DNA from: a bacterium
Lineage (GTDB): Bacteria > SAR324 > NAC60-12
Reading direction: 5' to 3'
Length of the DNA stretch: 64,000 nucleotides
NCBI GenBank assembly: GCA_965205865.1
Contig: CBDBHR010000030.1
Span: forward strand, 768,001-832,000
The notes under the pieces: model-generated
What the model was told of the DNA's origin: nothing
The model's database searches: none
Seen by the model: the letters and a program-made list of their open reading frames with translations, nothing else
Translations under genes and position numbers: made by a program
In this document: positions 10,199-41,140 of the stretch, in pieces
How the letters are laid out: each line of letters begins with the position of its first letter
Numbering within the stretch: position 1 is the stretch's first letter

Positions 10199-10496
10199 CA
10201 TTTTATCTCTTTCTCCAGCAATCCAATGGCACAAAGTATGAATTATCATCATCATGCAGTCGAGATAAATATGCACTTTGGATTATTTTTTTGATTTTTT
10301 TTTTGGGGGGGGGTTTTTAGGGCAGTGGTTCTGTTTAATTTGAGAAGCAGAATTAGTCATTGCGAGCAACTCTATCAAATATCTTTTCTCAGATTCCCTG
10401 CTGAACAGACGACGCAAGAAATTGCAGTCCTCCGCCCAATGTGTTATTCTTTTGAAAAGACGACAAATTTCACTTCTCATTCCCATTGAGGACCTC

Positions 10497-11348
10497 ATGG
10501 CTTCTTTAGAATCCATCAAAAACAACACCACTCCAACACGGTTTCCTCCATCTGCCAGGGAGCCCCTCAGGGTGAGTGAGGCAGAGTATTGGAAGACGTA
10601 CTATGAACACCCGGATAGTCAATATGAATGGAACAATGGACTCTTGGAGGAAAAGCCCATGCCAGATTTTTTAAGCATCTCTCTGTATCAATGGTTCTTG
10701 CGCTTATTAGAAGAATATTTAACCGTCTTCCCTCAAGGGCGAATCATGGCATTGGAAATGGGCTTTCGTTTGGAACTGGGAAAGAAAAAGGTGAGTATTC
10801 GCAAACCGGATCTGGCCGTGATTCTTCACTCCAATCCTGTCGAGGCCAAACTGTTGGATCGTTCGTTTGATGGAGTGTGTGACCTCTGTATAGAGTTTTT
10901 ATCCGACTCGACTCCCTCGGAGGTGGAACGGGATACGGTTCACAAAAAAGAAGAATACGCCAAAGCGGGGGTAGCGGAATATTATATATTAGACCGTTTG
11001 CGCAAGCATACCGCCTTCTATGCTCTCAATGAGCAGGGGGTTTATGAAAGGATGAAGAGCAAAGAGCCCGGCGTGATTCATTCCAGGGTCTTTGATCGAT
11101 TCGCATTTCGTCTTCAGGATTTGGAAAAACAGGTGGCCTTTGAAAAATTAATCGATGATCCCCTCTACCAGCCGTTCCTCTTGAAAAGCTTCCAACAAGA
11201 GCGACAAGAAAAAGAAAACGCCTTGCAAAGAGAAGAAAAAGAGCGAAAAGAAAAAGAAAAAGAGCGAAAAGAAAAAGAAAAAGAGCGACAAGAAAAAGAA
11301 AACGCGCTTGTGGAAGTCGAACGGCTGCGTGCTCTCCTTCAAGAGTAA
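10497..11348 (+). CDS. Uma2-family (PD-(D/E)xK) endonuclease-like protein with repetitive coiled-coil tail
   Basis: YEWNNGLLEEKP, RKPDLAV, DLCIEFLSDS, EYAKAGVAEYYILD; ERKEKEK repeats. Confidence 0.85.
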   Translation: MASLESIKNNTTPTRFPPSAREPLRVSEAEYWKTYYEHPDSQYEWNNGLLEEKPMPDFLSISLYQWFLRLLEEYLTVFPQGRIMALEMGFRLELGKKKVSIRKPDLAVILHSNPVEAKLLDRSFDGVCDLCIEFLSDSTPSEVERDTVHKKEEYAKAGVAEYYILDRLRKHTAFYALNEQGVYERMKSKEPGVIHSRVFDRFAFRLQDLEKQVAFEKLIDDPLYQPFLLKSFQQERQEKENALQREEKERKEKEKERKEKEKERQEKENALVEVERLRALLQE

Positions 11349-15674: not shown

Positions 15675-16448
15675 GTAACTATTCAGGTCTCTGAAAAACC
15701 CGTTTAGTTAAATATCATTAAAAAAGATTCCCGGGGAGGATCGATCGTTTTCAATTCCTCTCACGAAATTGTTCAATCGATCGGGAACCCTCTCCTTCAC
15801 TAAAACAACTTAGCGAAGGCATGATCCTGGCACAACAACAACAACCCAATGTCAACCCCCCAAGGCAAAATAAATGAGGGATTCGCAAAAAAAAAACAAA
15901 AAATCAATAAATCTGCTCAAATCCGGGGACAGTCAGAAGCCGTTCAGTTCAATAACGTTGAAAAAAGATTCCCGGGAAGGATCCATCGTTTTCACATCCT
16001 CCCGGGGTATTGTTCAATCGATCGAGCGGGAATCCTCCCACAGCTAATTTTGAATCAAACGAGCGGAAGTCCTCTCCTTCCCTGAAACGACAAGGCATGA
16101 TTTCAGCACTACTACGCGGCGCAAAGCCTATAGCAAGTTTGGATCAGGAGAATTGCGCAACAAAGGAGGTCAGCTATAAAAAGATATATTGTGGTCCATC
16201 TTCGGCATGAGCCAAAAAGCGAATGTTCGCTCCACAATCCAGCGTTTTTTCCAACGGTGATAATGATCGTAAACGCTTTGCCAGGGAGGTAAATCATGGG
16301 CAAGCATGCTTCACTGACAACCCGTTTTCAGGACATACAAAATCGCATTGACGATGCTATGTTTGCTATGAATACTTTTGGCCACGCAGGGGGCGGAACG
16401 TTTAAAAAAAGGAGAGTTTCAGTAACAAAGAGGAGCATGTGAAACCTG
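15675..16448 (-). mobile_element. IS5-derived remnant plus two leader modules, ending in an IS66-type terminus
   Basis: near-identical to 9180-9828; GTAACTATTCAGG at 15675. Confidence 0.7.
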
Positions 16449-19644: not shown

Positions 19645-20421
19645 ATGAAAATGAAAAATACGAATCGAGTCTTGAAAATCATAGCCTTTTTGCTCTCCTT
19701 CGGGCTCATTGCCTGTACAATCTCCATCAAACTACTGCCACCGGATGAAGTCAACCAGATGGGAGCCCAAACATTCAGTGAGATAAAACGGGAGGCTCAC
19801 CGGGAAACAGACACCCGCGAAAACGCCTATGTCCAGTGTGTCGCGAAACGGATTCTAAAGCATTCCGGGGAAAATTCCGCAATCGATCAATGGGAAGTCG
19901 TCCTGTTCCGGGACCCGGCTGTTAACGCCTTTGCGCTCCCGGGAGGAAAAATCGGCATCTACACCGGACTACTGAATATGGTCGCAAATCAGCACCAGTT
20001 GGCGGCGGTGCTCGGGCATGAGGTCGGACACGTCATCCTGGAACACGGTAATTAAAAAATCTCTCAGGACCTCCTGGTTAAAGGAGGGTTGGCGGCTATT
20101 GAGCGCCTTATCAAAGACAAGGACCCGCAGGAAAAAAAGAGATCCTGGCTGGTTTGGGGCTTGGCGCGCAGATCGGTCTCGCGCTTCTTTACAGTCGCCA
20201 TCATGGATTCGAAGCAGACCAGGTTGGACTTGACCTGATGGCAAAAGCAGGATTTGATCCCCGGGAAAACCTTACGTTTTGGGAAAATATGAATCAGAGT
20301 GGCGGTCAGCCACCTGAATTCCTCTCCACTCATCCTTCCGATGAAAATCGAATCAAGGATCTGAAATCGAGAATGACGGACGCCTTGAAGCTTTACGAGC
20401 AAGCGGAAAAAGCGGATTGTG
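19645..20421 (+). pseudogene. M48 metallopeptidase lipoprotein, disrupted
   Basis: VNAFALPGG, HEVGH, then stop/frameshift; YSR..EADQVG, EFLSTHPS. Confidence 0.85.
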
Positions 20422-21835
20422 GCAACGTTCGACTAACACTCGGAGAATGGAGTTTTTGGACCTATGAAGACGGCAGTCGTTACAAAGACCCGGTGCATGT
20501 GTGGAAGTTTCTTGATCGGAACCTGGGAGATCCTGAAGACGACTGTCAACATTCTATTGGTAGTCGGATCGGGAAAATTAATAAATAACCCCGATATCTA
20601 CGTCTTCAGGAAGTCGGACAAGTTCGTAGTAGCGTGAGCAGCCGACAAGGCTGTGGATTTTGGAGAGTGAAAGTCTCTCTGTCGTCAGTTTCCCATTCGG
20701 GCGACTAGCATATCCGGTGCGCTTAGCAGGTAACTGCTTTGCGTTCTGCCCGGAAGTAAAAGTCACCGTCTGCTTTGGACGAGAGTCCATAGTGGGAGCC
20801 AACAGGGTGGCGAGCAAACCTGGAGGCCTGAACATTAGTGAATGATTGCAGCTCCGAAAGAGACTTCCGTCGTGAATTGGCTTGACGGTGTGTTGCCCAA
20901 CCGCCGACCCGCTCGCTACTCGGGGAAGGCCGAAGTTCCAAGGGAAGTAATGGGAACAGGCACCTTGGAGGGAGCCGGAGTATGGATCCAAGCATCCAGG
21001 GAAAGATCCACAGAGATAACGTCGGGAAGGGCCAACTTCCAGCAGGGACTCGCAATAACCTGCAAGGACCTACCGTATAGGGTAACACCGAAATCGGCAG
21101 GAGGATTTTGGTCTGGCGCATGAGTCCGTATGAGCGATGAAGACCGGGTAACGCTGGTCGAGGGGATGCTTGGACATCTCCCTTTTGGAGGTAACACCTC
21201 TAAAAGGCAAAGGGGCTCTCGGTAAATGGCGGGCATTTCATGAACCACTGCCGAACTTGTGTCGGTCAAGAGTGTCACCACAAAGAATGTCGAGCTGGAG
21301 ATCAAATCACTCACTCCAGGGGTGAATGCAGGCGAGTGCTTAAGCTTCGGATTGGGTGGGAAGGGTTTCTGGGGAAACGCTGTTGCTGCCAACCGGACTC
21401 GGGAAATCCGACCGTCCGGGATGAGAGGGGGGGCTTGCGGAAACGTGATGCAGGGTCTGACGCCCTTTTGCCACGAAACCGGAAACGGGGGATACATTGG
21501 AAGTCGTTGACCTAAACATGCGCGCGCCGTATTTCTACCCGGCATGAAGCGGCGAACAATGAGATCATTTGTAGAGAGTAATAATGCAAAGGAAATCAAC
21601 GGAGCCTGTGGAGCAAAGGGACTTGGCTGAGAGGAATTCTGCTTGCCCTCCTGTGTTCGGAACTCAGAGGCCGGTAAAATCAGAGAGCGGTTTAAGCAGG
21701 GTGCGCCAAACGGCAACGTTTGAGCGTCTGACTCGAAGCAGGAGCCGGATGCGTTAGCAGCGCACGTCCGGATCTGTACCGGAGGAATGACGAAAGGTGG
21801 CTGGAAACCACTATAAGTCAGTTCTTTACGGTGAC
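20419..21835 (+). mobile_element. ORF-less group II intron (outer), 5'-truncated, interrupted by a second intron
   Basis: GGAACCTGGGAGATCC (DI end), AAGTCGGA..GTAGTAGCG/ATGAAG (DII-DIII), DV GAGCCGGATGCGTTAGCAGCGCACGTCCGGATCT (21742-21775), 3' end TACGGTGAC. Confidence 0.85.
20635..21543 (+). mobile_element. ORF-less group II intron (inner), 909 nt, complete
   Basis: absent from the second copy of the host intron; DV AACCGGACTCGGGAAATCCGACCGTCCGGGAT (21391-21422); 3' end CTACCCGGC; EBS1 loop TCGCTACT at 20913-20920. Confidence 0.85.
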
Positions 21836-21904
21836 TTTGATTATTTGATTAGGAACGAGTCCAGTTTTTTTGCCCCCTTTTCATTTAATCAAAGGCCTGA
21901 CCCC
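21836..21904. repeat. GGGGTCAGGCC-type REPIN/MITE lacking its first 11 nt
   Basis: matches the reverse complement of 36101-36178 from nt 12 onward. Confidence 0.85.
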
Positions 21905-22164
21905 TTTTTGACCCCCTTTTCAGACCCTTTTTCTGATAGGAGTTTGGCGGTTTTGAAAATATTCTTTCACAGAGAGAACTGACTCTTCAACCTTTTTAAA
22001 GAGTTTAAGAATTTCTGCTTGTTTTTCTTTTTCTTTTTTGATAGTTCTCAACGAAATCGCCTTTGGCTTAAGGTTTTATTTCACCTGGCATACGGCGATA
22101 ATATCGAGAAATTAAGAAAAATGACACTTAAATTTCGCTAATATTTTAGCCGAAAGTCATGCAT

Positions 22165-22583
22165 TAGGGGCTTGACGCTGCGTAGTAATGCTAAAATCAT
22201 GCCTTTACTAAGTTGTTTTAGTGAAGGAGAGGGTTCCCGCTCGATCGATTGAACAATATCGTGGGAGGACTTAAAACCATGGATCCTCCCTGGGAATTGT
22301 GTTCAACGATATTTAACTAAACCGCTTCTAACTGTCCCCGGATTTGAGCAGATTTATTGATTTTTTTTTTTGCGAATCCTGCATTTTTTGCATTTGGGGC
22401 TAGACATTGCGTATTAGTTGTGTTAGACTCATGCCTTCGCTAAGTTGTTTTAGCGAAGGAGAGGGTTCCCGCTCGATCGATTGAACAATATCGTGGGAGG
22501 ACTTGAAAACGATCGATCCTCCCCGGGAATCTTTTTTAAATGATATTTAATTAAACAGGTTTTTCAGAGACCTGAATAGTTAC
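22165..22583 (+). promoter_or_regulatory. two tandem promoter plus structured leader modules
   Basis: TAGACA-17-TAGACT (22401-22429); hairpin CCTTCGCTAA/TTAGCGAAGG; nested stems GGTTCCCG/CGGGAATC and GGGAGGA/TCCTCCC; T-run. Confidence 0.6.
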
Positions 22584-22608
22584 AACTAAAGAATATAAGG
22601 AGAATAAA

Positions 22609-24426
22609 ATGAAACTCTTAGCAAGTATAGAAACCTTAATAAAAACCTTCGCGGCTGGGCTGATCTTAATCTTCGTGGCCACAGCATCGTGGGCAGGCGA
22701 AATGGTGGACGTCAAGCTCACCAAGCTGGACGGAACCACCATGATAAAAAAGATGGAGAAGCCGCGATATGGTGGCTGGGCCGACGAGAATCCCAGACCC
22801 GAAACGCCTGGCTGGTCGCCGGATGGTCCCATGTTTCAGAATTGGCCTCTGCAAGTCACTCTTGATCGACTGCTGTCCTTTGACTTTTATAGGGGGCCAA
22901 CCGGCACAGATGAATACTCGTTTATCGGAGGCGCCCCCCCTAATGTAGCACTTATAGGAAATGTAGCTGAAAGCTGGGAACAGACCGACTTGACAACCAT
23001 GATCCTCAAAATTCGCAGGGGGGTTCGCCACTGGGATAAGAGCGACGTGGCGCGGCCCCATATGCTGCTGGAGTCGGCCTATGGCCGGGAGCTTGATGCC
23101 TATGATATTGAATACTCCTGGAATAGGATTGTAGCGGCTCCTACTTCTGGCCAGACCGGCCGGCAAGAAAAATATAAGGCCCTTGATAAATGGACGCTTG
23201 AAATAAGTTGGGAAAAACCGGATGGCACTTTGATGCCCGCTAATTTGTCGGGTACGGTCCTCATCCGGCCAGTTGAAGTCACGGACGAGGTGAACAGCGC
23301 TGACTGGCAGAATGCCATAGGCACAGGACCCTTCATCCCGATAGGTTATGTCGAGGGGAGTGTGGCAACCTACAAAAGGAATCCGAACTACTGGCAGCAC
23401 GACCCCTTCTTCCCCGAGAACCAACTTCCCTATCTGGACGGTTTTCGGCATGTAGTCTTAAAGGAAGATGAGGCGATTCTTGCGGCACTGCGGACAGGCA
23501 AGCTTGAACGAGCTCCTGGTCTTGCGGGCATCAACTGGCGTCACGCGGAAAGCCTGGCGAAAAGCAACCCTGAGCTCAAGCACGACGTGTTTTATAGCAG
23601 CATGAGAGTGATGCATGTGCGCGTAGACCTCGAGGATAGTCCCTGGCAAGATATCAGGGTGCGACAGGCAGCCATGCTGGCCGTTCCCCACCAACAAGTA
23701 GTTGACGGATTCTACAAGGGTAATGCCGGTCTTTATGGTTGGCCGGCCTGTCCGGGTCATGCCCCGTTGTATGTCCCCTATGAAGAGTTGCCCACAGAGC
23801 CAACACTACCCGATTCAGGGGCTAGCGCGAAAGAGCTGATCGAATATCATCCGGATAAGGCACGTCGACTTCTCGCCGAGGCCGGCTATCCTGACGGTTT
23901 CGAATTCGAATTGCTTACCCCGCCTGAATTCCAGGAGTGGGCCCAGCTTTATGCCGGCTTCTTTGACGCTGTCGGTCTGCATGCGAAAATCCGGGTTGAA
24001 GAATCCGGTGTCTACTCGTCCATGCTGGTCAAGGGAGAGGCCATGGAAATGGCAGCTAACGATTGGGGTGGCTGTGGGAATGCACTTTTGCCCTTCAACT
24101 ATTATTACCAACCGGGACACCAGTACAACTATTCCCATGTCACCATGGAGCAAGGCTTGGATGTGGTTCTGGATAAGTATGCCGAAATTGCGGAAACCTT
24201 GGACCCAAAGGAGTTCATCAGGAAGTTCCGGGAGCTATTGATCTACACGATAGAAAAAGCCCATGTGATCGGCCTGCCACCGGAGTCGGTACTGCTTTAC
24301 TGGCAACCGTGGCTGAAAGGTTTTAGCGGTGAAGGTAGCGTTGACACTGAGAGTGCTCATTCCATAGTAAAGCATTTCTGGATTGACCAAGACCTACAGC
24401 TTGAGATCACCGGAAGCAACGAGTAA
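22609..24426 (+). CDS. family 5 substrate-binding protein, cassette 3
   Basis: signal peptide ..ASWA, PRYGG, VAESWE, GTGPF, RNPNYW, LLAEAGY. Confidence 0.9.
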   Translation: MKLLASIETLIKTFAAGLILIFVATASWAGEMVDVKLTKLDGTTMIKKMEKPRYGGWADENPRPETPGWSPDGPMFQNWPLQVTLDRLLSFDFYRGPTGTDEYSFIGGAPPNVALIGNVAESWEQTDLTTMILKIRRGVRHWDKSDVARPHMLLESAYGRELDAYDIEYSWNRIVAAPTSGQTGRQEKYKALDKWTLEISWEKPDGTLMPANLSGTVLIRPVEVTDEVNSADWQNAIGTGPFIPIGYVEGSVATYKRNPNYWQHDPFFPENQLPYLDGFRHVVLKEDEAILAALRTGKLERAPGLAGINWRHAESLAKSNPELKHDVFYSSMRVMHVRVDLEDSPWQDIRVRQAAMLAVPHQQVVDGFYKGNAGLYGWPACPGHAPLYVPYEELPTEPTLPDSGASAKELIEYHPDKARRLLAEAGYPDGFEFELLTPPEFQEWAQLYAGFFDAVGLHAKIRVEESGVYSSMLVKGEAMEMAANDWGGCGNALLPFNYYYQPGHQYNYSHVTMEQGLDVVLDKYAEIAETLDPKEFIRKFRELLIYTIEKAHVIGLPPESVLLYWQPWLKGFSGEGSVDTESAHSIVKHFWIDQDLQLEITGSNE

Positions 24427-24448
24427 GACAGGTTACAGAAAGCAGCAC

Positions 24449-24486
24449 GGGGGCTGGGGGGACTCTCTCCCGCCCCCTTTTTCTTT
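24449..24486 (+). terminator. intercistronic hairpin with T-run
   Basis: GGGGGCTGGGGGGA-CTC-TCTCCCGCCCCC-TTTTT. Confidence 0.55.
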
Positions 24487-24506
24487 ATCATTGTGAGGCC
24501 TCATTA

Positions 24507-25466
24507 GTGCGGACATATATAATCCGAAGACTGTTATTGATTATTCCCACCGCCCTCATTGTGACCATCATCGTCTTCTTTACGTTTCGTCTCATCCCCG
24601 GGGACATAGTAGACCTGATGGCGGCGTTGCAAATAAGTCAGGGAAGCGGATCGGGTGACCAACGGGAGGCGTTGAGGCGCGAACTCGGGCTGGATCTGCC
24701 GATTCATATCCAGTATGGCCGTTGGTTATCAGGTGTGCTGAGAGGGGACCTGGGAAAATCCTTATGGACAAAACTACCGGTAGCCGAGAACATCATCAAT
24801 CGATTGCCGGTATCCCTTGAAGTTGGCATCCTGGGCTTAATCATATCGTTGGCCATCGCCTTACCCGTGGGCGTCTTGTCCGGCATGCGGCCGGAAACGA
24901 ACATGGATTATCTCCTGCGTAGCATAGCCATCCTCTTTATCTGCATTCCCAATTTCTGGCTGGCGACGATCGTTTTGATCTACCCGTCCGTCTGGTGGGC
25001 CTGGTCGCCACGGATGACGTATATTTCTTTCATGGAGGACCCCCTTGCCAACCTGGGCATGTTCATCATCCCGGCTGCCATCCTGGGGATGTGGCTCTCG
25101 GGAGTCACCATGAGACTGATTCGCACCATGATGCTGGAGGTGCTCAGGGAGGATTACGTCAGGACGGCCTGGGCCAAGGGGCTGAAGGAGAAAGTGATCG
25201 TGCTGAGGCATGTCCTGAAGAATGCGCTGATCCCGGTGGTCACCATGCTGGGGCTTCAGCTACCCGTCATGATTGGTGGTGCGGTGATTGTGGAGTATAT
25301 TTTTTCTCTGCCCGGGCTGGGTTCGCTCACGGTCGACGCGATTAATCGGCGAGACTATCCCATTGTCTCCGCAATCAATCTGTTTGTCGCGGGCTTTGTG
25401 CTCGTGATTAATATCCTCGTGGACATCAGCTACGCCTGGCTTGACCCCAGGATCAGGTATCAATAG
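24507..25466 (+). CDS. DppB-like permease, cassette 3
   Basis: DYVRTAWAKGL, RRDYPIV, LDPRIRY. Confidence 0.9.
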   Translation: MRTYIIRRLLLIIPTALIVTIIVFFTFRLIPGDIVDLMAALQISQGSGSGDQREALRRELGLDLPIHIQYGRWLSGVLRGDLGKSLWTKLPVAENIINRLPVSLEVGILGLIISLAIALPVGVLSGMRPETNMDYLLRSIAILFICIPNFWLATIVLIYPSVWWAWSPRMTYISFMEDPLANLGMFIIPAAILGMWLSGVTMRLIRTMMLEVLREDYVRTAWAKGLKEKVIVLRHVLKNALIPVVTMLGLQLPVMIGGAVIVEYIFSLPGLGSLTVDAINRRDYPIVSAINLFVAGFVLVINILVDISYAWLDPRIRYQ

Positions 25467-25480
25467 AGGAGAAGAGGGAA

Positions 25481-26419
25481 ATGGCGCTTAGAGATGAGGA
25501 GTTGGCAACGCAAGCAGCCGTACAGGTAAAAAGGAGACCGCTTCGTAACTTCCTGTCCAGGCTCTTCCGGGAGAAGAAGCTGGGTGCGGTTGGCTTGATT
25601 ATCGTCCTGGCATTTCTGGTGGTGGGTATCTTTGCTCCCCTGATTGCCCCCCATGGCATGTACGACTATAACCTGATGCATGTGATGGAAGGCCCCTCAG
25701 CCGAGTTTCTCATGGGGACAGATCAGTACGGGCGAGACCAGGTCAGCCGTATTATCTACGGGGCTCGTATCTCTATGATTGTCGGGCTTTCCGCCGGTGT
25801 TCTTGCGGTGGGGATTCCTATTTTTCTTGGCATTTTCTCAGGGTACTGGGGCGGTAAGTTTGACCTCATTTTGCAGCGGTTTGTTGATGCCGTACAGTCT
25901 TTTCCATGGCTTTTCATTATCCTGGGCGTCATGTCTCTGCTGGGACCCGGTATGGTCCAGGTCATCCTTGTTTTGGGGGTGTTTTGGGGTATCACCAATA
26001 CCAGGATGGTCAGGGGCGTGGTTTTGAGCACCAAGGAGAACGTGTATGTACAGGCAGCGATTGCTACTGGCTGCAGCACCTGGAGAATCCTCTTTAGGCA
26101 CATCCTGCCTAATATTTGGGCGTCGGTCATCGTTTTGTTTACCGTTACCGTCGGTTCAGCAATTATCGCCGAGGCCACCATCAGCTTCCTGGGATTTGGG
26201 ATTCCTCCACCCCAGCCCAGCTGGGGCGGCATGCTTAGCCTGGAAGGCCGTAAATATATGTACCAGGCTCCCTGGCTGGCATTGTGGCCCGGTCTCTGCC
26301 TGGCCATCGTCGTCTACGGGGTAAACATGTTCGGCGATGCGCTCCGGGACCTGCTCGATCCCAGGCTGAGGGGGGGCGTTGGGCGTTTGGGCGCCTTTGA
26401 CACGAAGTTGCTTAAGTAA
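25481..26419 (+). CDS. DppC-like permease, cassette 3
   Basis: MGTDQYGRD, HILPN, NMFGDALRDLLDPR. Confidence 0.9.
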   Translation: MALRDEELATQAAVQVKRRPLRNFLSRLFREKKLGAVGLIIVLAFLVVGIFAPLIAPHGMYDYNLMHVMEGPSAEFLMGTDQYGRDQVSRIIYGARISMIVGLSAGVLAVGIPIFLGIFSGYWGGKFDLILQRFVDAVQSFPWLFIILGVMSLLGPGMVQVILVLGVFWGITNTRMVRGVVLSTKENVYVQAAIATGCSTWRILFRHILPNIWASVIVLFTVTVGSAIIAEATISFLGFGIPPPQPSWGGMLSLEGRKYMYQAPWLALWPGLCLAIVVYGVNMFGDALRDLLDPRLRGGVGRLGAFDTKLLK

Positions 26420-26463
26420 AGTGCTCAAGAGAAAAGAAGCAAAGGCTATTCAATGAAGGTGAA

Positions 26464-26832
26464 GGGGTCAGGCTTGCAAGTTTGCAAATTTAAGAAAACG
26501 TTTTTAGGTTGAGTTCTTTTAACCGCTTTTGGAGATTTGTGGATTCCTTCAATCTTTCTCACAACTTATGCACTCCACGAATGATAGTAGAATCATCTCG
26601 ATTGAGAGCATTTGCCACTCCCCGGATTGTTGCAGATTTCCAATCGAAAACTGATAAAAGCGACGAGAGTCGCTGTCATCGAAAAAGTATGTTGCCCCCC
26701 ATTGCCTCGAAGTATCACATGATAAAGCGCACCAGGGTAGTACAAACGTGGTTTCCGAGACAATTTGGCAAATTGAAAAAGGTTAAAATTTAAAAAAATA
26801 CTCTATTTTTGCAAACTTGCAAGCCTGACCCC
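26464..26832 (-). mobile_element. internally deleted RAYT-like (Y1 transposase) element with 25-bp terminal inverted repeats
   Basis: GGGGTCAGGCTTGCAAGTTTGCAAA..TTTGCAAACTTGCAAGCCTGACCCC; minus strand reads SRKPRLYYPGALYHVILRGNG, then a C-terminal HTH-like VANALNRDDSTIIRGV. Confidence 0.8.
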
Positions 26833-27136
26833 GATTCGAAAATACCATTGTACGAGCATGACCCTCAACTCCAATCTTATCCGCAAATATAGCTTGATCC
26901 TATCTTACCAATTTTATAAAAACCCATTTATGAAAATCATAAAATTCTATCCGGGTGTTTTGTATGGGGAACATGAGAAAAACTTGAACGATCATTCGGA
27001 ACTAAATGCAAGAAAACGATTTAATCAATAAAAATGCTGTCATTGAAGGAACAATCTTCGACTGTCTCCAAATCGACAAACTGCTTAAAACATCCTCAAA
27101 TTCAGGGATATATTAAAACTGTCCAGACTTAATAAG

Positions 27137-30100
27137 ATGCGTTTCATGCATCCGGAAGCAATCTTTTCGTCCTATTTGAGTGATCTCGCCGCTGTGGCCC
27201 AACAAGGCGATGCCCGGGAGGAGAGTTTTTACCCGGCGCTTGCTGAAATGCTGAAGCAAATCGCCAAAGCGACCGGGAAATCGCATATACACGTGACCAC
27301 CCTTCCCAGACCGACCGACGGGGGGAATCCGGATTTTCGTCTCTGGAATGGCAAAGATCACATCATCGGCTATATCGAAGCCAAGAAACCGAGCGAAGAG
27401 CGACTGGACAGTATCGAGAAATCCGAACAGCTCAAGCGTTATCGATCCACGTTTCCGAATCTCATACTTACCAACTTTCTCGAATTCCGCTTGTACCGTA
27501 ATGGCAACCTCGAGCGTTCGGTTCTGGCAGCCCGGCCATTCGTACTCAACACCTTGCATACGACACCGGCCCTTGAAAAATCCGGTGAACTATTAGCCCT
27601 TTTCGAGCACTTCCTGGATTTTGTTTTACCCCAAACGTTCACGGCCGAATCGCTTGCCATTGAGCTGGCAAAACGTACGCGCCACCTGCGCGACGTCGTC
27701 GCCGAGCAGTTTCAAGACGAACGGCACAAACGAGGTATGCTATCCGGCTTTTTCGAAGCCTTCCAGACCTATCTTATCGGCTCACTTACAAGTGAGGATT
27801 TTGCCGACTTGTTCGCCCAGACCATTTCCTATGGACTTTTCGCTGCCCGTATCCGCGCCGAAAATGGTTTCAACCGGCGTGCCGCTTTCGACAACATTCC
27901 CCACACAATCGGTGTCTTGCGTGACCTTTTCCGCTTCGTCTCACTAGGCGATTTTCCTGCCGCCCTCGCCTGGTGCGTGGATGACATTGCAGAGGTGCTG
28001 GCCGTGGCAGATGCCCCCGGAATTCTGGATCATTACTACCAGGAAGGCAAGGGCAATGACCCGATCGTGCATTTCTACGAGACCTTTCTCGCGCAGTACG
28101 ATCCCGAAGAACGTGAACGACGCGGAGTTTACTACACTCCCGAACCGGTGGTGAAGTACATCGTTCATTCCCTTCATGGCCTTCTCAAGACGGAATTCGG
28201 CCGGCACGATGGTCTCGCTTCCGATGGCGTGACCCTCCTCGATCCGGCGGCGGGAACGATGACATTCGTCGCCCGAGCCGCCCAACAGGCGGTGTCCGAA
28301 TTCGAGGCTAAATATGGCAGTGGTGGCCGGCAAGACTTCATCCGTCACCATATTCTGAGAAACTTCTATGCCCTCGAATTGATGATGGCACCCTATGCTG
28401 TTGGCCATCTCAAAATGAGTTTTATTCTGGAAGAACTCGGCCACCGTCTCGAGGACAACGAACGTGTTCCGTTCTACCTCTCCAATACCCTCGACATGGA
28501 AGAATTGGAAGAAAGCCATTTTCCGGGACTTTCCGCTCTTGTCGAGGAATCCCGGCTGGCTGGAACGATCAAAAAACAGGCCCCGATCCTGCTCATCCTT
28601 GGTAATCCTCCCTATTCGGGTCATTCCAGTAACAGGGGCGAGTGGATACGGAAGATGATCGAAAATTACAAACAAGTGGACGGGAGTCCCCTGGGAGAGA
28701 AAAACCCGAAGTGGCTGCAGGATGACTACGTCAAGTTCCTGCGATTCGCCCAGTGGAAAATCGAGCAAGCCGGGCAAGGTATCGTCGGCATGATCACCAA
28801 TCACAGCTACCTCGACAATCCCACTTTTCGTGGCATGCGGCGGAGTCTGATGCATACATTCGATGACATCCATATCCTCGACCTGCACGGCAACTCTCTC
28901 AAGAAGGAGAGATGCCCGGATGGCAGTCCCGACCAGAATGTTTTCGATATCCGTCAGGGCGTGACCATCGCCTTCTTCATCCTGCGAGGCGGAAAAAAAG
29001 AAAGTGATGCCCGGGTTTGGCACGCGGAACTCCACGGGACGCGCGCGAGCAAGTATGACTGGCTGGATGCTCATGACCACGGTGACACTGGCTGGCGCAA
29101 ATTAAACCCCACTGCCCCGTTCTACCTGTTCATACCCCGTGACGATGCGCTCGCAGTTGGTTATCAGCGATTTATCCCGGTTCCCGACATTTTTCCGGTC
29201 AACAGCGTCGGTATCGTGACCGCGAGAGATCACCTGACGATTCGCTGGTCGAAACAAGAGGTGTGGGAAACCGTCCGTCCTTTTTCGGGATTGGACCCGG
29301 AACTGGCCCGGCAGGGTTATGCTCTCGGTAAAGATACGCGAGACTGGAAAGTGACGCTGGCGCAGAAGGACTTGCGGGACTCCGGTCTCAAACATCAAAA
29401 AATCGTTCCGATCCTTTATCGACCCTTTGACGTGCGCTACACCTATTACACCGGCCGGTCACGCGGTTTCATCTGCATGCCTCGTCCTGAGGTCATGCGC
29501 CACATGTTGGCTGGGGAGAATTTGGGACTAATGATGCCTAAACAACATAAGAATGAATTTGGCGCTTTAGTAACTCAATTCATTAGCGCTCACAAATCGG
29601 TTGCAGCATACGATATCAATTATCACTTCCCTGTCTACATTTACCTCGCGACAGACCACAATAATCTTTTCGCTCAAAACGAGTCAGCCGAACGAAAGCC
29701 GAACCTGAACTCCGAGTTGGTGACGGCACTGGCGAAGGCGCATGACAAAAAACCCTCTCCCGAGGCGATCTTCCACTACGTCTACGCTGTTTTGCATGCC
29801 CCGGCATATCGCAATAAATACGCTCAATTCTTGCGCACCGATTTCCCGCGTATCCCGTTTACTACAGACAAAGATTTGTTTGACAAGCTCGCCGGTCTGG
29901 GTTCACGACTGGTCGCCTTACATCTCCTCGAGTCACCGGAACTCGATCCGCCAACCTGCCACTTTGAAGGCGAAGGTAACGATACAGATGGTTGCACGGA
30001 CAAAGGCGCAGGGCTTTCGCTACGACGCCGCTGAGCAACGTATGCACGTCAACAGAACGCATTACTTCAGCCCCCTCCCTCTGGAAGTTTACGAATACCG

Positions 30101-30283
30101 CATCGGTGGCTATCAAGTCTGTGAAAAATGGTTGAAAGACCGCAAGGAACGTCGTCTCAAACCACCGACATCCGTACCTACTGCCGGATGGTGACTGCCA
30201 TCGAGCGCACAATCACAATCCAACAACAGCTTGACATTGCTTATGCCGATTTGGAAGATAACTGCGTGTCGCTCAAGGAATGA
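27137..30283 (+). pseudogene. type ISP/IIG-like fused restriction-modification enzyme (N6-adenine MTase); C-terminus frameshifted
   Basis: PDF..IEAK nuclease motif, RGVYYTPEPVV, LLDPAAGT, GNPPY, YRPFD, DFPRIP; YRIGGYQVCEKWLKDRK in another frame. Confidence 0.85.
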
Positions 30284-30559
30284 ATGTATACTACTCGTCA
30301 ATCACTATGCTAAAAAAGTGACTGGACAGGAAGAGATTCCAATGAACGGTTCACAACGCTTTATACGATTTGAGGTACAACCTGATGAACCACCACATTT
30401 AACGGTTAAATAGCTTTTTCAGAATTACTAATATTTTCTGTATATTCTCATAGGAAAATTTACATTCCTGCCTCGGTAGATAAAGAGGGCATAGAAGTTT
30501 CTCAGAATGTGGTGGCGGATAAAGTCTTCTCGGCCATTACTACCATATTTAATCTCGAA

Positions 30560-30806
30560 TTGGGCACTGCATTGGCTTTAATGACGATAAAGCCAGTAAC
30601 CGAAATAATGTGCTTCATAGACCACTTCCATAGGGAGCGCGTTGAAGGGAATCTACAGCTTTTGTGACGCCGACCAACTAGCCGGTATCGACTGAAAGCT
30701 CATCTCCATTCAAGGTGCGGAGGGTTACGTGAAAACTCTTCTTATGCGCATCAATGCCAACAAATAGGGTTTGACCTGATAAAGATTCAATGTAAACTTT
30801 TTCCAT
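30560..30806 (-). pseudogene. IS110-family transposase N-terminal fragment
   Basis: RBS GAGGAG, MEKVY..LFVGIDAHKKSFHV..VVYEAHYFGYWLYR with internal stops. Confidence 0.65.
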
Positions 30807-30926
30807 GACAGTCTCCTCTAAAGGTTGTTTGTAATTTGAGAAATTTCATTTTTTATCACACTCTTCGGAAGCTGTCTGTTTTACATAGTAAATATGTGGA
30901 CTATTTTTCAGGCTGTGGCTCATGAA

Positions 30927-31284
30927 GGGGTAAGGCTTGCAAGTTTGCAAATTTAAGAAAACGTTTTTAGGTTGAGTTCTTTTAACCGCTCTTGGAGATT
31001 TGTGGATTCCTTCAATCTTTCTCTCAACTTATGCGCTCCACGACTGATAGTAGAATCATCTCGCTTGAGAGCATTTGCCACTTCCCGGATTGTTGCAGAT
31101 TTCCAATCGAAGACTGATAAAAGCGACGAGAGTCGCTGTCATCGAAAAAGTATGTTGCCCCCCATTGCCTCGAAGTATCACATGATAAAGCGCACCAGGG
31201 TAGTACAAACGCGGTTTCTGAAACAATTTGGCAAATTGAAAAAGGTTAAAATAAAAAAAAATACCTTATTTTTGCAAACTTGCA
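30927..31284 (-). mobile_element. second copy of the RAYT-derived element; one terminal repeat cut by a group II intron
   Basis: near-identical to 26464-26821; lacks terminal AGCCTGACCCC. Confidence 0.8.
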
Positions 31285-31705
31285 GTCACCGTAAAGAACT
31301 GACTTATAGTGGTTTCCAGCCACCTTTCGTCATTCCTCCGGTACAGATCCGGACGTGCGCTGCTAATGCATCCGGCTCCTGCTTCGAGTCAGACGCTCAA
31401 ACGTTGCCGTTTGGCGCACCCTGCTTAAACCGCTCTCTGATTTTACCGGCCTCTGAGTTCCGAACACAGGAGGGCAAGCAGAATTCCTCTCAGCCAAGTC
31501 CCTTTGCTCCACAGGCTCCGTTGATTTCCTTTGCATTATTACTCTCTACAAATGATCTCATTGTTCGCCGCTTCATCGCTACTACGAACTTGTCCGACTT
31601 CCTGAAGACGTAGATATCGGGGTTATTTATTAATTTTCCCGATCCGACTACCAATAGAATGTTGACAGTCGTCTTCAGGATCTCCCAGGTTCCGATCAAG
31701 AAACT
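31285..31705 (-). mobile_element. ORF-less group II intron, 5'-truncated; uninterrupted copy of the outer intron
   Basis: reverse complement of ~20506-20634 joined to 21544-21835. Confidence 0.9.
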
Positions 31706-32359: not shown

Positions 32360-35300
32360 CTAACCAGCACGGGTGGGGAGCAGTTTTTCGTCCACTGTAT
32401 CCACGCACGCACTCCCATTCGCCGAGTACCAGCCCCAGCAGGTGGGCCGCATTTCGTTGTCGTCCGCGTCGTAGAGGGTCGCCACCACTGTCTCCCCGGC
32501 ACCCAACCCGTCAAAGCTCAGCGAACTCGGAGACGGTTCGTTCCTCGCCACTAGCCCAACCACGTCCATATTGAGCGAACTCGAGAGGGTCGCCTCAGCC
32601 ACCGCGACGGCTGTTACCACGCAGTTCGCGTCCACGGTCGCCTTCGTGGCGTTGTTGGACGTCCATAAAAAGGCATATCCCGGACATCTCCTCGCCCTCG
32701 CTGTCTACGACGCACGCTGAGTAGGCCACGGTGTCTCCCCCCTGCGCCCATTCCTTGTGTCCTCGGCGCTGATCTCCACGCTCAGAGCACTCTGTTACGG
32801 TTCCGATACCGTGAACGCTAAGGATCCCGATCAGTTGTTCGTCGTGTCCGATTCACCCGCAACCGCTTCCACGCAGGCCCCGTAGTAGTACGTGCCAGCC
32901 GTCGACGGCGCGTACAGGTCGATCCCCTCCGAAACCTGGCTCGAAGGGACCAACGCAGAAACTTCGTCGGTGCCGACCTCCGTGTCCGACACGGAGATCG
33001 TTGCGTCCGTCGATCGGTAGTATCGCAACGTCGTGGCATCAGAATTCGCGTCTCCATAGTTTCGAACGGTTGCTGAGAATTGGATGCGAGTTCCAGGACC
33101 AACGCCGCCAAGAGGGGTCCCCGCGATTACCCCAACGATCCTCAAGTCCGGCTGCCCCGTTGACTCCTCCTCCACAGCGATTGTCACTGATGACGAACAG
33201 TTGTTCGTGGTGTCCGACTCGTCCGTCACCGCTTCCACGCAAGCCCCGTAATAGTACGTGCCCGCCGTCGAGGGCGCGGTCAGCAAGATCGACTCGGCGC
33301 TCGTCCCTGAGGCAGCCAATGCCCCCACCACGTCCGTGCCGACCTGGGTGTCCGACGAAGAAATCCTCGAATCGGTCGAACTGTAGTAGCGCAGCGTCGA
33401 CGCCGTAGATTGCTTGTCGCCGGCGTTGCTCACTGTCGCCGACAGCGTGAACGATTCGCCCGTGTTCAAATTGCCGTCGTCCACCGATGCCGACACTACC
33501 AGGTCCGGTTGCGGCTCCGGCACCGTCACCCCCACCGACCGCGAACAGTTGTTTGCCCTATTGGACTCCCCCGCCACAGCGTCCACGCACGCGCCGTAAT
33601 AGTACGTTCCGGGTGCCGTCGGCAAGCGCTCGCTATGCACCTCGGCGAAGCGGCTCGAAACGGCGAGTTGCGGTACCGCGTCGGTGCTCACCTGCGTGTC
33701 GGACGTCGTGATTGTCGCGTCCGTCGACAGGTAGTATCGAACCGTCGTAGTCGCTGACGTTGCATCCCCAACATTAGCCACCCGCTGGTTCAAATGGACG
33801 AGTGCTCCCGGAGACGTTTCGAGAGTAGGGCCGAGTGTGATGGTGAAAGAGTCGACTATCAGGTCGGGCTGGAGCTCCGACTCCGGTTCCGTCAACGTGA
33901 CCTGCACCGATGTCGAGCAGTTGTTAGTCGTGTCGGACTCTTCCGTCACGGCGTCCACGCACGCCCCGTAGAATATATTCCGGGGTTCGACGGTACCGTT
34001 AAAGAAATCGTCGCCCCGTAGCCACCCGAAGGAACAAGCGTATTCACCACGTCCATGCCCACCGCCGTGTCGGAGGTGGTGATCTCTGCGTCCGTCGATC
34101 GGTAGTACCGCACCGTTGTCGCTGAGGACCTCTGAGCGCCCTGGTTGTGCACTGTCACAATTAGCGCAAACGACTCACCCGCGGCCAGACTGCTGTAGCT
34201 CACATTTGGCCCCAGCACAACCAAGTCCGGAGCCTGCTCCGGCGGCAGGGTGCCCTGTTCCGGAGGCGGGGTATCATGCACCGTGACCTGAACCGATGCC
34301 GAGCAGTTGTTGGTCCTGTCTGACTCTCCCGCCACTGTGTCCACACACGCTCCGTAGAAATGCGTTCTCACAGTTGCCGTCACCGAGATTGACTGTTCGC
34401 TATTCCCCGACGCCGACAGTTCACCCACTGCGTCCGTCCCCACTTCCGTGTCCGAGATCGTGATCGTCGCATCCGTCGAGCGGTAATAGCGCAGCGTCGT
34501 CTCCGACGATTTTCCGTCACCCGCGTTGCTCACCGTCGCCGACAAAGTGAAACTCGCTCCCGTTTCCGGAGTCGTGTTGTCCACCGATGGTGACGCTACA
34601 AACAGGTCCGGAGTAGGCGATTTGCCGGATTGTGCGGACTGACCCTCATCATCAAGACCCCAGCATGTCACGGTACCCGTAACGCGGACAGCACAGGTGT
34701 GCTCCCTTCCGGCACTGACCGTGATGAAAATGCCCGCAGGAGGCGTGGACTGACCCACGTCATCGAGACCCCAACATGCCACGGCACCCGTATCGAGAAT
34801 TCCGCAGGTGTGCTTACTTCCGGCACTGACCGTGGTGAAGGTGCCCGCAGGCGGCGTGGACTGACCCACGACATCAAGACCCCAACATGCCACGGCACCC
34901 GTATCGAGAATTCCACAGGTGTGTTCCGCCCCGGCACTGACCATGGTGAAGGTGCCCGCAGGCGGCGTGGACTGACCTTCGTCATCAAGACCCCAACATT
35001 CTACGGCGCCCGTGTCGAGAATTCCACAGGTGTGTTCCGCCCCGGTACTGACCATGGTGAAAGTACCCGCAGGCGGCGTGGACTGACCCTTGTCATTGAG
35101 ACCCCAACATGCCACAGCACACGTGTCGAGAATTCCACAGGTGTGTTCCGCCCCGGCACTGACCATGGTGAAGGTGCCCGCAGGCGGCGTGGACTGACCC
35201 TCGTCATCAAGACCCCAACATTCCACGGCACCCGTGTCGAGAATTCCACAGGTGTGTTCCGCCCCGGCACTGACCATGGTGAAAGTACCCGCAGGCGGCG

Positions 35301-35538
35301 TGGACTGACCCTCATCATCAAGACCCCAGCATGCCACGGCGCCCGTGTCGAGAATAGCGCAGGTGTGATCCGCCCCGGCACTGACCATGGTGAAGGTGCC
35401 CGCAGACGGCTCGACGGAAAGCGCTTCCCCTCCACCATCTTCGTCACCGCCTCCACCGCAGGCTGCCAGGATCAGTGCCACCAAAAAGGTGAGGCATAAC
35501 GAAAACAATTTATTCGGTTTCATTTTTATTAGATGCAT
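32360..35538 (-). pseudogene. surface lipoprotein with RCC1-like repeats and multiple CARDB/Ig-like domains, disrupted
   Basis: lipobox LAAC; VSAGAEHTCGILDTGAVACWG repeats; PDL..TVSNAG..YYYGACVDAVAGESDTTNNCS domains; frameshift near 33975, stop at 32831. Confidence 0.85.
34636..35405 (-). repeat. seven 108-bp coding tandem repeats (36-aa RCC1-like blades)
   Basis: near-identical DNA units encoding AGTFTMVSAG..CWGLDDEGQSTPP. Confidence 0.9.
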
Positions 35539-35622: not shown

Positions 35623-36100
35623 TTGATGAAAAACAAAGGTAGCACAAGATCGGCAAGAACATCAGCAAAAAACATTCATATCAGCCAGGGAGGCAGAGAA
35701 CTGACTGCGCAAGCAGGCTTGATTCCGGTTGTCAAATTTTTTCACAAAGAAGGGATTTTTTCAAAGACAGAGCAGACCATAGACCATCAGCGTGGTGCCA
35801 CGGATCTTTATGACGCGGTGGACATGGTCATTTTGTCGGTGATCGGCATTGTTGGTGGCGCCCGTTCGATTCGTGCGATTGTGACGGTTTGGAACGACTG
35901 TGTTTTGAGTCGTGCGGCCGGATGGCTGAGGATTCCGGATGAAAACGCATTCGGTCGCATACTGCGTACCTTCACAGAGAAAAACATCAATGAAATGGAG
36001 AGCTTGAATCATCGGATTCGAGGCGGCATCTGGCGCAAGGCGCTTCGAAGTGCTAAAAGCAACGTTGGGGTGTTGCCCCGTCTTGTGATTGACGGAAAGT
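35623..36100 (+). pseudogene. IS1380-family transposase N-terminal fragment
   Basis: LTAQAGLIPV, IPDENAFGRILRTF, RLVID; ends at a REPIN. Confidence 0.7.
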
Positions 36101-36178
36101 GGTCAGGCCTTTGATTAAATGAAAAGGGGGCAAAAAAACTGGACTCGTTCCTAATCAAATAATCAAAGGCCTGACCCC
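36101..36178. repeat. GGGGTCAGGCC-type REPIN/MITE
   Basis: GGTCAGGCCTTTGATTA..TAATCAAAGGCCTGACCCC. Confidence 0.85.
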
Positions 36179-38516: not shown

Positions 38517-38598
38517 GGGGGTCAGGCCTTTGATTAAATGAAAAAGGGGGCAAAAAAACTGGACTCGATCCTAATCAAATAATAAAAGGCCTGACCCC
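38517..38598. repeat. GGGGTCAGGCC-type REPIN/MITE, complete
   Basis: GGGGTCAGGCCTTT..AAAGGCCTGACCCC. Confidence 0.85.
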
Positions 38599-39839: not shown

Positions 39840-40733
39840 TTACTCTTGAAGGAGAGCACGCAACCGTTCGACTTCCGCAAGCGCGTTTTCTTTTTCTTGT
39901 CGCTCTTTTTCTTTTTGTTGGCGCTCTTGTTCTTCTCTTTGCAAGGCGTTTTCTTTTTCTTGTCGCTCTTTTTCTTTTTCTTGTCGCTCTTGTTCTTCTC
40001 TTTGCAAGGCGTTTTCTTTTTCTTGTCGCTCTTGTTGGAAGCTTTTCAAGAGGAACGGCTGGTAGAGGGGATCATCGATTAATTTTTCAAAGGCCACCTG
40101 TTTTTCTAAATCCTGAAGACGAAATGCGAATCGATCCAAGACCCGGGAATGAATCACGCCGGGCTCTTTGCTCTTCATCTTTTCATAAACCCCCTGCTCA
40201 TTGAGAGCATAGAAGGCGGTATGCTTGCGCAAACGGTCTAATATAAAATATTCCGCTACCTCCGCTTTGGCGTATTCTTCTTTTTTGTGAACCGTATCCC
40301 GTTCCACCTCCGAGGGAGTCGAGTCGGATAAAAACTCTATACAGAGGTCACACACCCCATCAAACGAACGATCCAACTGTTTGGCCTCGACAGGATTGGA
40401 GTGAAGAATCACGGCCAGATCCGGTTTGCGAATACTCACCTTTTTCTTTCCCAGTTCCAAACGAAAGCCCATTTCCAATGCCATGATTCGCCCTTGAGGG
40501 AAGACGGTTAAATATTCTTCTAATAAGCGCAAGAACCATTGATACAGAGAGATGCTTAAAAAATCTGGCATGGGCTTTTCCTCCAAGAGTCCATTGTTCC
40601 ATTCATATTGACAATCCGGGTGTTCATAGTAGGTCTTCCAATACTCTGCCTCACTCACCCTGAGGGGCTCCCTGGCAGAGGGAGGAAAGCGTGTTGGAGT
40701 TGTGTGTTTTTTGATGGATTCTAAAGAAGCCAT
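39840..40733 (-). CDS. Uma2-family endonuclease-like protein, second copy
   Basis: near-identical to 10497-11348; tail 14 aa longer. Confidence 0.85.
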   Translation of the reverse strand: MASLESIKKHTTPTRFPPSAREPLRVSEAEYWKTYYEHPDCQYEWNNGLLEEKPMPDFLSISLYQWFLRLLEEYLTVFPQGRIMALEMGFRLELGKKKVSIRKPDLAVILHSNPVEAKQLDRSFDGVCDLCIEFLSDSTPSEVERDTVHKKEEYAKAEVAEYFILDRLRKHTAFYALNEQGVYEKMKSKEPGVIHSRVLDRFAFRLQDLEKQVAFEKLIDDPLYQPFLLKSFQQERQEKENALQREEQERQEKEKERQEKENALQREEQERQQKEKERQEKENALAEVERLRALLQE

Positions 40734-41140
40734 GAGGTCCTCAATGGGAATGAGAAGTGAAATTTGTCGTCTTTTCAAAAGAATAACACATTGGGCGGAG
40801 GACTGCAATTTCTTGCGTCGTCTGTTCAGCAGGGAATCTGAGAAAAGATATTTGATAGAGTTGCTCGCAATGACTAATTCTGCTTCTCAAATTAAACAGA
40901 ACCACTGCCCTAAAAAACCCCCCCCCCCAAAAAATAATCCAAAGTGCATATTTATCTTGATTTCATGATGATGATAATTCATACTTTGTGCCATAGGATT
41001 GCCGGAGAAAGAGATAAAATGAAAAAAATTATCTCTTGCCGGGAATCTTTTGTTCCTCATCCGGGCGTTCGAGCACCCGTTCTTTCGATGGGCTCAATGG
41101 CTGGGTGAAGTATTGTCAATCTCTTGTATAAGGAGTTATC

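Follow-up and report, generated by a model that had tools for sequence, protein, structure and literature searches.

We analysed a 64,000-nt stretch of a bacterial genome of the SAR324 lineage (NAC60-12; assembly GCA_965205865.1, contig CBDBHR010000030.1, positions 768,001 to 832,000 of the forward strand), hereafter the window, in which two incomplete copies of one group II intron lie directly against short repeats of the repetitive extragenic palindrome (REP) type. Both copies are 5'-truncated 3' parts of the same intron, they stand on opposite strands, and one of them is interrupted by what is probably a fragment of a second group II intron. The repeats beside them belong to a family that resembles REPs and REP doublets forming hairpins (REPINs), together with a transposase that resembles the REP-associated tyrosine transposases (RAYTs). 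We consider it very probable that the window holds two decayed copies of a mobile group II intron whose natural homing site is the 11-nt head, GGGGTCAGGCY, of the REP/REPIN-like repeats and RAYT-like elements. A first-pass annotation of the window had proposed that this intron lineage homes into the ends of REP-type transposase elements, and in the window's own genome the proposal is supported by the insertion junctions, by paralogs of the same host element with and without the intron, and by exon-binding site 1 (EBS1) of the intron.

The loss of both 5' ends, already noted in that annotation, can now be placed exactly: copy 1 starts at intron nt 264 (position 20483) and copy 2 at intron nt 287 (position 31705). 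Copy 1 is without the first 263 intron nucleotides, EBS1 included, and without its 5' exon, and neither window copy keeps EBS1. A BLAST search of the window's own genome returned dozens of copies, and most of them extend upstream of the start of copy 1 by 263 nt. At its 3' end copy 1 reads ...CTTTACGGTGAC at 21835 on the plus strand, with ...GGTGAC as its last bases, and the same letters end copy 2 at 31285 on the minus strand. A repeat search of the window found the two copies as inverted pairs with 100% complementarity, one of 293 nt (21544-21836 / 31284-31576) and one of 129 nt (20506-20634 / 31577-31705). The domain IV stub of copy 1 is the leftover of a 1265-nt deletion of the open reading frame (ORF), with the junction at about 21714, and domains V-VI (21740-21835) match RF00029 with 31 bits (E 0.00095), a value that does not reach the gathering score of 40. 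When the whole window was compared with Rfam at gathering score no family was found, because both copies lack the strongly matching 5' part of the intron. Copy 1 adjoins the end of a broken M48 peptidase gene and copy 2 adjoins unrelated sequence. The break points differ and the 11-nt head is absent upstream of both copies, which points to deletions that took the 5' part of the intron plus the head, and not to simple abortive reverse transcription. The peptidase gene itself (window 19645-20588) lies in two frames with PF01435 on both halves, and its last frame enters intron copy 1.

The sequence behind each copy is a repeat from which the first 11 nt are missing (Table 1). Behind copy 1, positions 21836-21904 read TTTGATTATTTGATTAGG...AAAGGCCTGACCCC, which is the reverse-orientation form of the approximately 80-nt doublets minus GGGGTCAGGCC; the same doublet forms 15 of the 39 3' exons catalogued in the genome. 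Of the two unoccupied doublets in the window, both read directly, the one at 36099 has the left head GTGGTCAGGCC, one or two letters off, and an exact right head. The end of copy 2 is followed on the minus strand by TGCAAGTTTGCAAAAAT..., the body of a 369-nt element that is intact at 26464-26832, where its layout is GGGGTCAGGCT + TGCAAGTTTGCAAA ... TTTGCAAACTTGCA + AGCCTGACCCC. The 358-nt copy at 30927-31284 lacks exactly AGCCTGACCCC (equal to GGGGTCAGGCT on the minus strand) and is 96% identical to 26460-26759. Stop-to-stop frames of the 369-nt element were compared with the full 312-aa transposase-like protein P0002 described below, and on the minus strand they contain N-terminal (KPRLYYPGALYHVILRGNGG) and C-terminal (FDWKSATIRGV...NRDDSTI) coding remnants around an internal deletion. 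Each host element is thus without exactly its first 11 nt at the intron end, and the earlier remark that two different host elements are cut at the same register stands. The register is more than chance, since it recurs genome-wide and since the two strands of the genome together hold the exact 11-mer 138 times, where 3.5 are expected from base composition.

Table 1. Intron pieces and host repeats in the window (positions count from the first letter of the window)
Feature	Position	Strand	Remarks
Outer intron copy 1, first retained piece	20483..20633	+	intron nt 264-414; covers the last part of domain I, all of domain II and the first part of domain III
Inner group II intron fragment, ~910 nt	20634..21543	+	begins GTGAGCAGCC; without domain V/VI, 3'-truncated
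Outer intron copy 1, 3' piece	21544..21835	+	rest of domain III, domain IV stub, domains V-VI
REPIN-like palindromic doublet minus first 11 nt (GGGGTCAGGCC)	21836..21904	.	3' exon of copy 1
Intact miniature of RAYT-like transposase element	26464..26832	-	inverted heads at 26464-26474 and 26822-26832
Second miniature RAYT-like element, right-hand head lost	30927..31284	-	3' exon of copy 2
Outer intron copy 2	31285..31705	-	5'-truncated; begins at intron nt 287; without inner fragment, without ORF
Unoccupied REPIN-like doublet	36099..36178	.	same family as host of copy 1; read directly
Unoccupied REPIN-like doublet	38518..38598	.	both heads exact; read directly

Copies of the intron in the window's own genome were catalogued by their end motifs, with a pairing limit of 2.7 kb between ends. 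The catalogue holds 41 5' ends and 39 3' ends; 31 are paired, ten 5' ends and eight 3' ends stand alone, and both window copies belong to the last group. The intron boundaries, read directly, are GTGCG ... GAC (GUGYG...AY type). Thirteen copies measure 689-692 nt, four 1957 nt, one 2039 nt and three about 1600 nt, and ten have other lengths (228 to 1010 nt); complete examples are the 692-nt copy at G000:C28:340771-341462 and the 1957-nt copy at C30:423584-425540. Two complete copies match the ribozyme family RF02005 (group-II-D1D4-6) with 163.1 and 168.1 bits (gathering score 49). A 470-aa intron-encoded protein (IEP; P0001) is the product of the 1957-nt form; it matches TIGR04416, the group II intron reverse transcriptase/maturase, with 342.7 bits (cut-off 300) and RVT_1 with 127 bits, and the YADD motif and an intact ORF are present in all four 1957-nt copies. 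No endonuclease domain was found after the maturase: the TIGR04416 match stops at residue 434 of 470, and there is no other Pfam domain at E <= 0.001. The commonest form, of 692 nt, is the 1957-nt intron minus 1265 nt of ORF at one fixed junction. The 13 ORF-less copies are 97.0-99.9% identical (median 98.1%), which we count as a sign of recency, and other independent ORF deletions exist among the genome copies. In a PDB sequence search the closest solved IEPs were those of class C (IIC) introns (7uim, E 1.4e-43; also 5hhl, 5hhj and 6ar1), and IEPs of other classes were nearly as close (6me0, 1.3e-37; 5g2x, 7.7e-37), so that the matches to IIC, CL and ML proteins lie too near one another to tell the class of this intron. 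The stretch is present in 20 of the 24 public sequencing runs listed, which come from nine studies and include four recorded as RNA (two labelled sponge metagenome).

Two unusual arrangements were seen among the genome copies. At one locus (L005, G000:C26:239009-240180) two introns stand head to tail, with the junction ...GGTGAC|GTGCGCC, and the second is only 91% identical over its own first 438 nt. At another (G000:C28:326218-327823) the outer intron is interrupted at nt 396/397 by a different 903-nt insert, which begins GCGCACTGGGCAGCG.

The host repeats form a large family. Behind the exact heads the commonest bodies are TTTGATTA (33), TGCAAGTT (25), TGCATACT (10), TGAAAGTT (6) and TGCATATT (5), besides others, and the high copy number, the palindromic structure and the inverted doublets of 80-81 nt place the repeat within the definition of REPs and REPINs. 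P0002, which is encoded elsewhere in the genome, matches PF01797 (Y1_Tnp) with 52.6 bits (cut-off 23) and a DnaA-C-like helix-turn-helix with 29.2 bits, slightly under the cut-off; its best NCBIfam model is NF047646 (REP-associated tyrosine transposase), with 72.4 bits against a cut-off of 80. Among the 15 PF01797 matches in the genome, 11 lie no more than 1.5 kb from a GGGGTCAGGCY head and about eight sit between an inverted head pair approximately 1.05 kb apart. At five of the 15 an intron occupies the head on the upstream side of the gene, in every case in the orientation of the gene. One copy per genome is described as typical of REPIN-associated RAYTs (PMC5581495); here there are 15 PF01797 matches, five copies of one element and internally deleted miniatures. 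The host system is therefore REP/REPIN-like with a RAYT-like transposase, and it departs from the textbook arrangement in its multi-copy transposase element and in its miniatures. The first-pass label of "RAYT-type" is right as to the Y1/HUH family and the inverted flanking heads; with a score below the NF047646 cut-off and a multi-copy element, it is better read as resemblance and partial membership. The RAYT-like element that is present five times has all its copies in a span of 24 kb (G000:C29:722000-746000), with differing outer flanks, and two of the copies contain introns.

The full-length copies supply the 5' junctions that the window lacks. The 5' exon predicted from the window, GGGGTCAGGCY, is found directly before GTGCGCC in full-length homologs of the same genome: by our count from the catalogue table, 23 of the 41 5' junctions carry it exactly, 14 carry it with one or two mismatches and four are different. 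Taken position by position across the 41 exons, -8 to -10 are G in 37-39, -7 is T in 33, and -6 to -1 read CAGGCY in 37. On the other side of the intron, 26 of 39 3' exons begin with an 8-mer that is also found behind an empty head, and at least six repeat sub-families are represented. Of the 138 exact heads, 24 are occupied and 114 empty, and T is the next letter at 110 of the 115 heads that were first scored as unoccupied (one of these 115 actually holds an intron 5' end). The clearest comparison is given by one RAYT-like element that is present at five places with unrelated outer flanks, intact at three and with an intron of 689 nt or 1957 nt at two; in both filled copies the intron separates position 11 from position 12 exactly, and no nucleotide is duplicated or missing. 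Filled and empty paralogs differ only by the intron, as is expected from reverse splicing. In at least six sub-families, and amid unrelated outer flanks, the intron is found at the bond that joins head position 11 to the repeat body, with neither duplication nor loss.

EBS1 was located by aligning domain I with that of 20 relatives from other genomes, which were fetched through the IEP (21 sequences in all). It reads 5'-GGUCUG-3' (intron nt 183-188) in a hairpin loop of domain I and pairs with both CAGGCC and CAGGCU, with one internal G.U pair; the Y of the head is explained by the first G of EBS1, which tolerates both C and U. Pairing of EBS1 with the 5' exon was scored in register over 16 non-redundant intron/exon pairs, drawn from several phyla, and holds at 90 of 96 positions. 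When exons were shuffled among introns 55.9 +/- 4.7 positions were paired, and none of 10,000 shuffles reached 90. The pairs found in relatives include UUAACG/CGTTAA, UGAGCG/CGCTCA, AGAGCG/CGCTCT, CCUGCU/AGCAGG, CGCCUG/CAGGCG and UGGGUG/CACCCA. Within the host's family, a sister species has EBS1 AGCCUG and exons ending GGCT, and another genus has UGGCUG and exons ending CAGCCA or CAACCA. One relative (L006) pairs at three of six positions, being misaligned at EBS1 owing to an insertion. The complementarity to CAGGCY that the first-pass annotation foresaw is accordingly present, and it co-varies with the 5' exon in the relatives. Two initial candidates were discarded after the alignment: AGCCTG in GAGCCTGGCG, the first guess for EBS1, is one strand of a co-varying stem, and GACCC in AAAGACCCGG, the first guess for EBS2, is a conserved segment.

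A number of observations weigh against homing into the head, or against so simple an account of it. The window copies show the 3' junction only. No REP can be recognised in four of the 41 5' exons, nor in 13 of the 39 3' exons; one of these four 5' exons is another intron, the insertion lying directly behind it. Some copies share flanks, as at C29:725560 and C29:732458, whose 3' flanks are identical owing to the repetition of the host element, and the copies are therefore not all independent insertions. Domains V/VI of the complete copies match RF00029 with 31-32 bits (E ~0.001) and do not reach the gathering score of 40. In the contigs of four public sequencing runs, compared with one complete copy, none joins the exons across the intron. 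A 6-bp EBS1 pairing plus T at +1 cannot be the whole of recognition: the genome contains 4430 empty CAGGCY sites, of which 1168 are followed by T, and only 159 of the 1168 have a GGGGT-like sequence upstream, whereas nearly all intron copies have one. The recognised site therefore reaches to about -11, and perhaps takes in an A-rich stretch at -13 to -16. An EBS2 complementary to GGGGT was not found by a consensus fold and inspection of the 21-sequence alignment. There is also no clear link between the EBS1 variant and the C or T at -1 (GGUCUG with T in 14 copies and C in 8-9; AGUCUG with T in 6-7 and C in 3).

From what is known of the family, homing would be carried out by a complex of the excised intron RNA and the intron's protein, the RNA reverse-splicing into the head at the DNA level. 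EBS1 would pair with nucleotides -6 to -1, the +1 T would be read as intron-binding site 3 (IBS3), and positions -7 to -11 would be read by an EBS2 or by the protein. Synthesis of cDNA would be primed by the nascent strand at a replication fork, which we propose because the IEP lacks an endonuclease domain. The ORF-less copies may be moved in trans by the protein of the four intact copies. The dispersed heads would provide dozens of harmless landing sites, and this abundance would explain the approximately 40 intron copies. The window copies would later have lost their 5' parts and the 11-nt head by deletion, and the lineage of copy 1, before or after this deletion, would have received a second intron, probably in the terminal loop of domain III.

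The mobility of the host elements suggests another route, in which the intron entered a REP or RAYT-like element once or a few times and then spread as cargo of the Y1 transposase. The host elements are indeed multi-copy and mobile, with five copies of one RAYT-like element between different outer flanks; 15 of 39 3' exons fall in one doublet family, and some copies have identical 3' flanks. We nevertheless hold this route to be improbable. The same bond is occupied in at least six sub-families with differing bodies (TTTGATTA, TGCAAGTT, TGCATACT, TGCATATT, TGAAAGTT, TGTGACTT), and the same host element occurs both empty and filled, with two forms of the intron. Transport as cargo gives no role to the complementarity and covariation of EBS1, and the transposase would have to tolerate an insert of 0.7-2 kb placed 11 nt from the end of an 80-nt doublet.

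Somewhat less credence still is due to a search for structure of the IIC type, in which the intron would recognise a DNA stem-loop and strike the repeats as palindromes. The targets are palindromic and the closest solved IEPs by sequence are IIC proteins, but IEPs of other classes score nearly as well in the same PDB search. IIC introns use an EBS1 pairing of 3-4 bp as described in PMC7923331, against 6 bp here. The insertion lies 11 nt inside the 5' end or arm of the repeat, and not behind a hairpin. The 45 nt upstream of the insertions fold like random 45-mers of the genome (median -7.7 versus -7.5 kcal/mol), and values of -12 kcal/mol or lower are found in six of 41 upstream 45-mers versus 57 of 400 random ones. 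HUH transposases cut at fixed distances from hairpins and the window, taken by itself, shows only 3' junctions with exactly 11 nt missing in both, yet it is hardly conceivable that the Y1 transposase cut the repeats at 11/12 and left remainders joined to intron ends, or that repeats inserted beside introns, since the 31 complete copies have the 11 nt directly upstream of the first intron base and keep both halves of a repeat that is split and not cut, empty and filled copies differ by the intron alone with nothing lost or duplicated, and EBS1 matches the site, so that the RAYT cleavage which the first-pass annotation had named as its alternative does not fit.

The third level of the arrangement is the fragment inside copy 1. 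It matches RF02003 (group-II-D1D4-4) at 20661-20837, but the 33.2 bits (E 3e-05) fall short of the gathering score (49). The fragment is missing from copy 2 and from most genome copies; in copy 1 and three other copies it is present as 909-910 nt between outer-intron nt 414 and 415. These four composites are 99.9-100% identical and stand at four different heads. An inner loop, CUCGCUACU, lies within ...GACCCG-CUCGCUACU-CGGGGAAGGCC; its complement, AGTAGC(G), stands in the outer intron just ahead of the insertion, and the motif around the loop resembles the EBS1 hairpin of the outer intron. Pairwise alignment of the inner and outer introns shows similarity near the 5' end only, so the inner EBS1 assignment draws on a local motif and not on positional homology. 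If the G is counted with the insert, one outer nucleotide is missing on its 3' side (...GTAGTAGCGATGAAG when empty versus ...GTAGTAGC-insert-ATGAAG when filled). A predicted hairpin of outer domain III puts the insertion in the terminal loop, in a minimum-energy fold that is no better than those of shuffled sequences (z 0.66). From these features we infer that the inner element arose when a second intron homed into the outer intron, and that its truncation came later. As for the four composites, the composite may have remained mobile, or else recombination may have carried the insert from one resident copy to another. The "three-level nest" described at first is confirmed in so far as the inner element lies inside the outer intron and this inside the repeat; its third level is a 3'-truncated fragment and not a whole intron. 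Introns that home into introns are known, as in twintrons and in the Methanosarcina introns that lie inside intron ORFs. The present case is like twintrons in having an intron within an intron and an inner EBS1-like loop that matches the flanking outer sequence; it differs in that the inner element is without domains V-VI and all four copies are of one truncated form. Elsewhere in the genome (G000:C29:45404-45599) there is a 196-nt fragment of an inner-type intron, 96% identical, with an unrelated 5' flank and apparently within a transposase-like frame.

Relatives of the IEP with 46-86% identity occur in metagenome-assembled genomes (MAGs) and genomes labelled Deltaproteobacteria, Gammaproteobacteria, Planctomycetota, Acidobacteriota, Verrucomicrobiota and others. 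Several are found behind heads similar to the one described here (GGGGGACAGGCG, GGGACAGGCA, GGACACCCA), and heads such as GGGGACAGGCG and GGGACAGGCA precede those in a Planctomycetota MAG, the sister species and several Gammaproteobacteria. Counts of the motif GGGGWCAGGC are 149 versus 22 for the control in the Planctomycetaceae MAG, where two introns occupy doublets that close with the head in inverted form. The sister species has 57 occurrences versus 18 for the control, often paired about 80 nt apart, and its genome also holds the transposase at 88% identity and many miniatures. We tried a comparison of orthologous sites with the sister species, and the flanks of the one locus tried were insufficiently syntenic. 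The motif was not enriched in three of five other genomes with relatives (Psychrobium, 1; Thiodiazotropha, 15 versus 17 for the control; Endozoicomonas, 2). By script or by eye, an inverted head partner within 160 nt was present at only three of 25 loci outside the host genome, and many relatives have quite different 5' exons. Repeat targeting is therefore seen in part of the clade only.

A wider reading is tentative and, in our view, rather doubtful: a multi-phylum clade of endonuclease-less introns may parasitise one lineage of REPs and Y1 transposases, reading a head, GGGG-W-CAGGC-N, that is conserved by the transposase system. The position of relatives behind such heads in other genomes, and the enrichment of the head motif as inverted doublets in two of these, speak for it. 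If it were true, the natural targets known so far (homing sites, terminators and attC sites) would be joined by REP heads as a fourth class, and a determinant other than a canonical EBS2 would read positions -7 to -11. Copies in the upstream head might then be co-transcribed with the transposase gene or modulate it.

Homing into the head would mean that an intron with ordinary RNA-guided recognition uses the conserved end of dispersed repeats as more than 100 neutral sites, and has reached about 40 copies. Such an arrangement of parasite on parasite joins two kinds of element whose activity is believed to take place on single-stranded DNA at replication forks. With it one could ask, in a natural setting, how introns reach high copy number harmlessly, what besides EBS1 defines the target, and whether insertion disables the mobility of REPINs and RAYTs or rides on it. 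For annotation, programs that find REPINs and RAYTs and those that annotate introns would each misread these loci if they ignored the other element.

Further repeats and genes were noticed in the window and its genome. An abundant dispersed repeat with the core CCGCTCGATCGATTGAACAATATCGTGGGAGGAC lies at window 22160-22600 (also at 15720-16040 and 44670-44820), upstream of peptide ABC transporter genes, and its family has well over 100 partial matches genome-wide. An inverted repeat of 1012 nt (10296-11307 / 39923-40934), 97% complementary and with its arms 28.6 kb apart, contains 21-nt tandem repeats, and long minus-strand frames at 32787-35490 are built of tandem units of about 366 nt and 111 nt. 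Between the two intron copies, 27137-30212 holds a type ISP-like restriction-modification gene (N6_Mtase + Type_ISP_C) whose end is apparently frame-shifted near 30034. Upstream of one intron locus elsewhere in the genome (L002) there is a separate repeat of about 1071 nt, probably an insertion sequence, with about 35 genome copies that are 98-99.7% identical and lie on most contigs.

For bacterial group II introns three target specificities are listed in PMC4424553, namely homing sites, terminator motifs and attC sites. Our literature search, in which coverage of subscription journals was incomplete, found no description of a group II intron lineage that homes into the ends of REPs or RAYTs. 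A close parallel is RmInt1 of Sinorhizobium meliloti, which has an IEP without endonuclease and its homing site in ISRm2011-2. Both introns lack the endonuclease domain, combine homing guided by EBS and IBS with a site in a multi-copy mobile element, and reach high copy number, and for both priming is presumed to take place at replication forks. They differ in that the present target is not one insertion sequence but an 11-nt head common to short non-coding repeats and Y1 elements (138 exact sites), and in that no EBS2 was found for the present intron. In Thermosynechococcus elongatus ORF-less intron copies are mobilised in trans. The likeness to that genome lies in the tens of copies and in ORF-less derivatives that presumably depend on an IEP supplied in trans. 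There the spread of group II introns to tens of copies went with divergence of target specificity (PMC2882425), whereas here there is one conserved repeated target. With class C introns, as characterised in PMC4424553, the present intron shares the absence of an endonuclease, abundant palindromic landing motifs and insertions that are mostly harmless; it differs in a 6-bp EBS1 pairing at a fixed sequence inside the repeat with no upstream hairpin, and in a ribozyme that matches RF02005. Finally, REPs are the preferred landing sites of other mobile elements too, as reported for the insertion sequences IS1397, ISPpu9, ISPpu10, ISPsy8 and ISPa11 (Tobes and Pareja 2006, PMC1525189). Those insertions are not guided by RNA, and the same source counts only two of nine copies of a P. 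putida group II intron as REP-associated, whereas here 37 of 41 5' junctions lie at a head.

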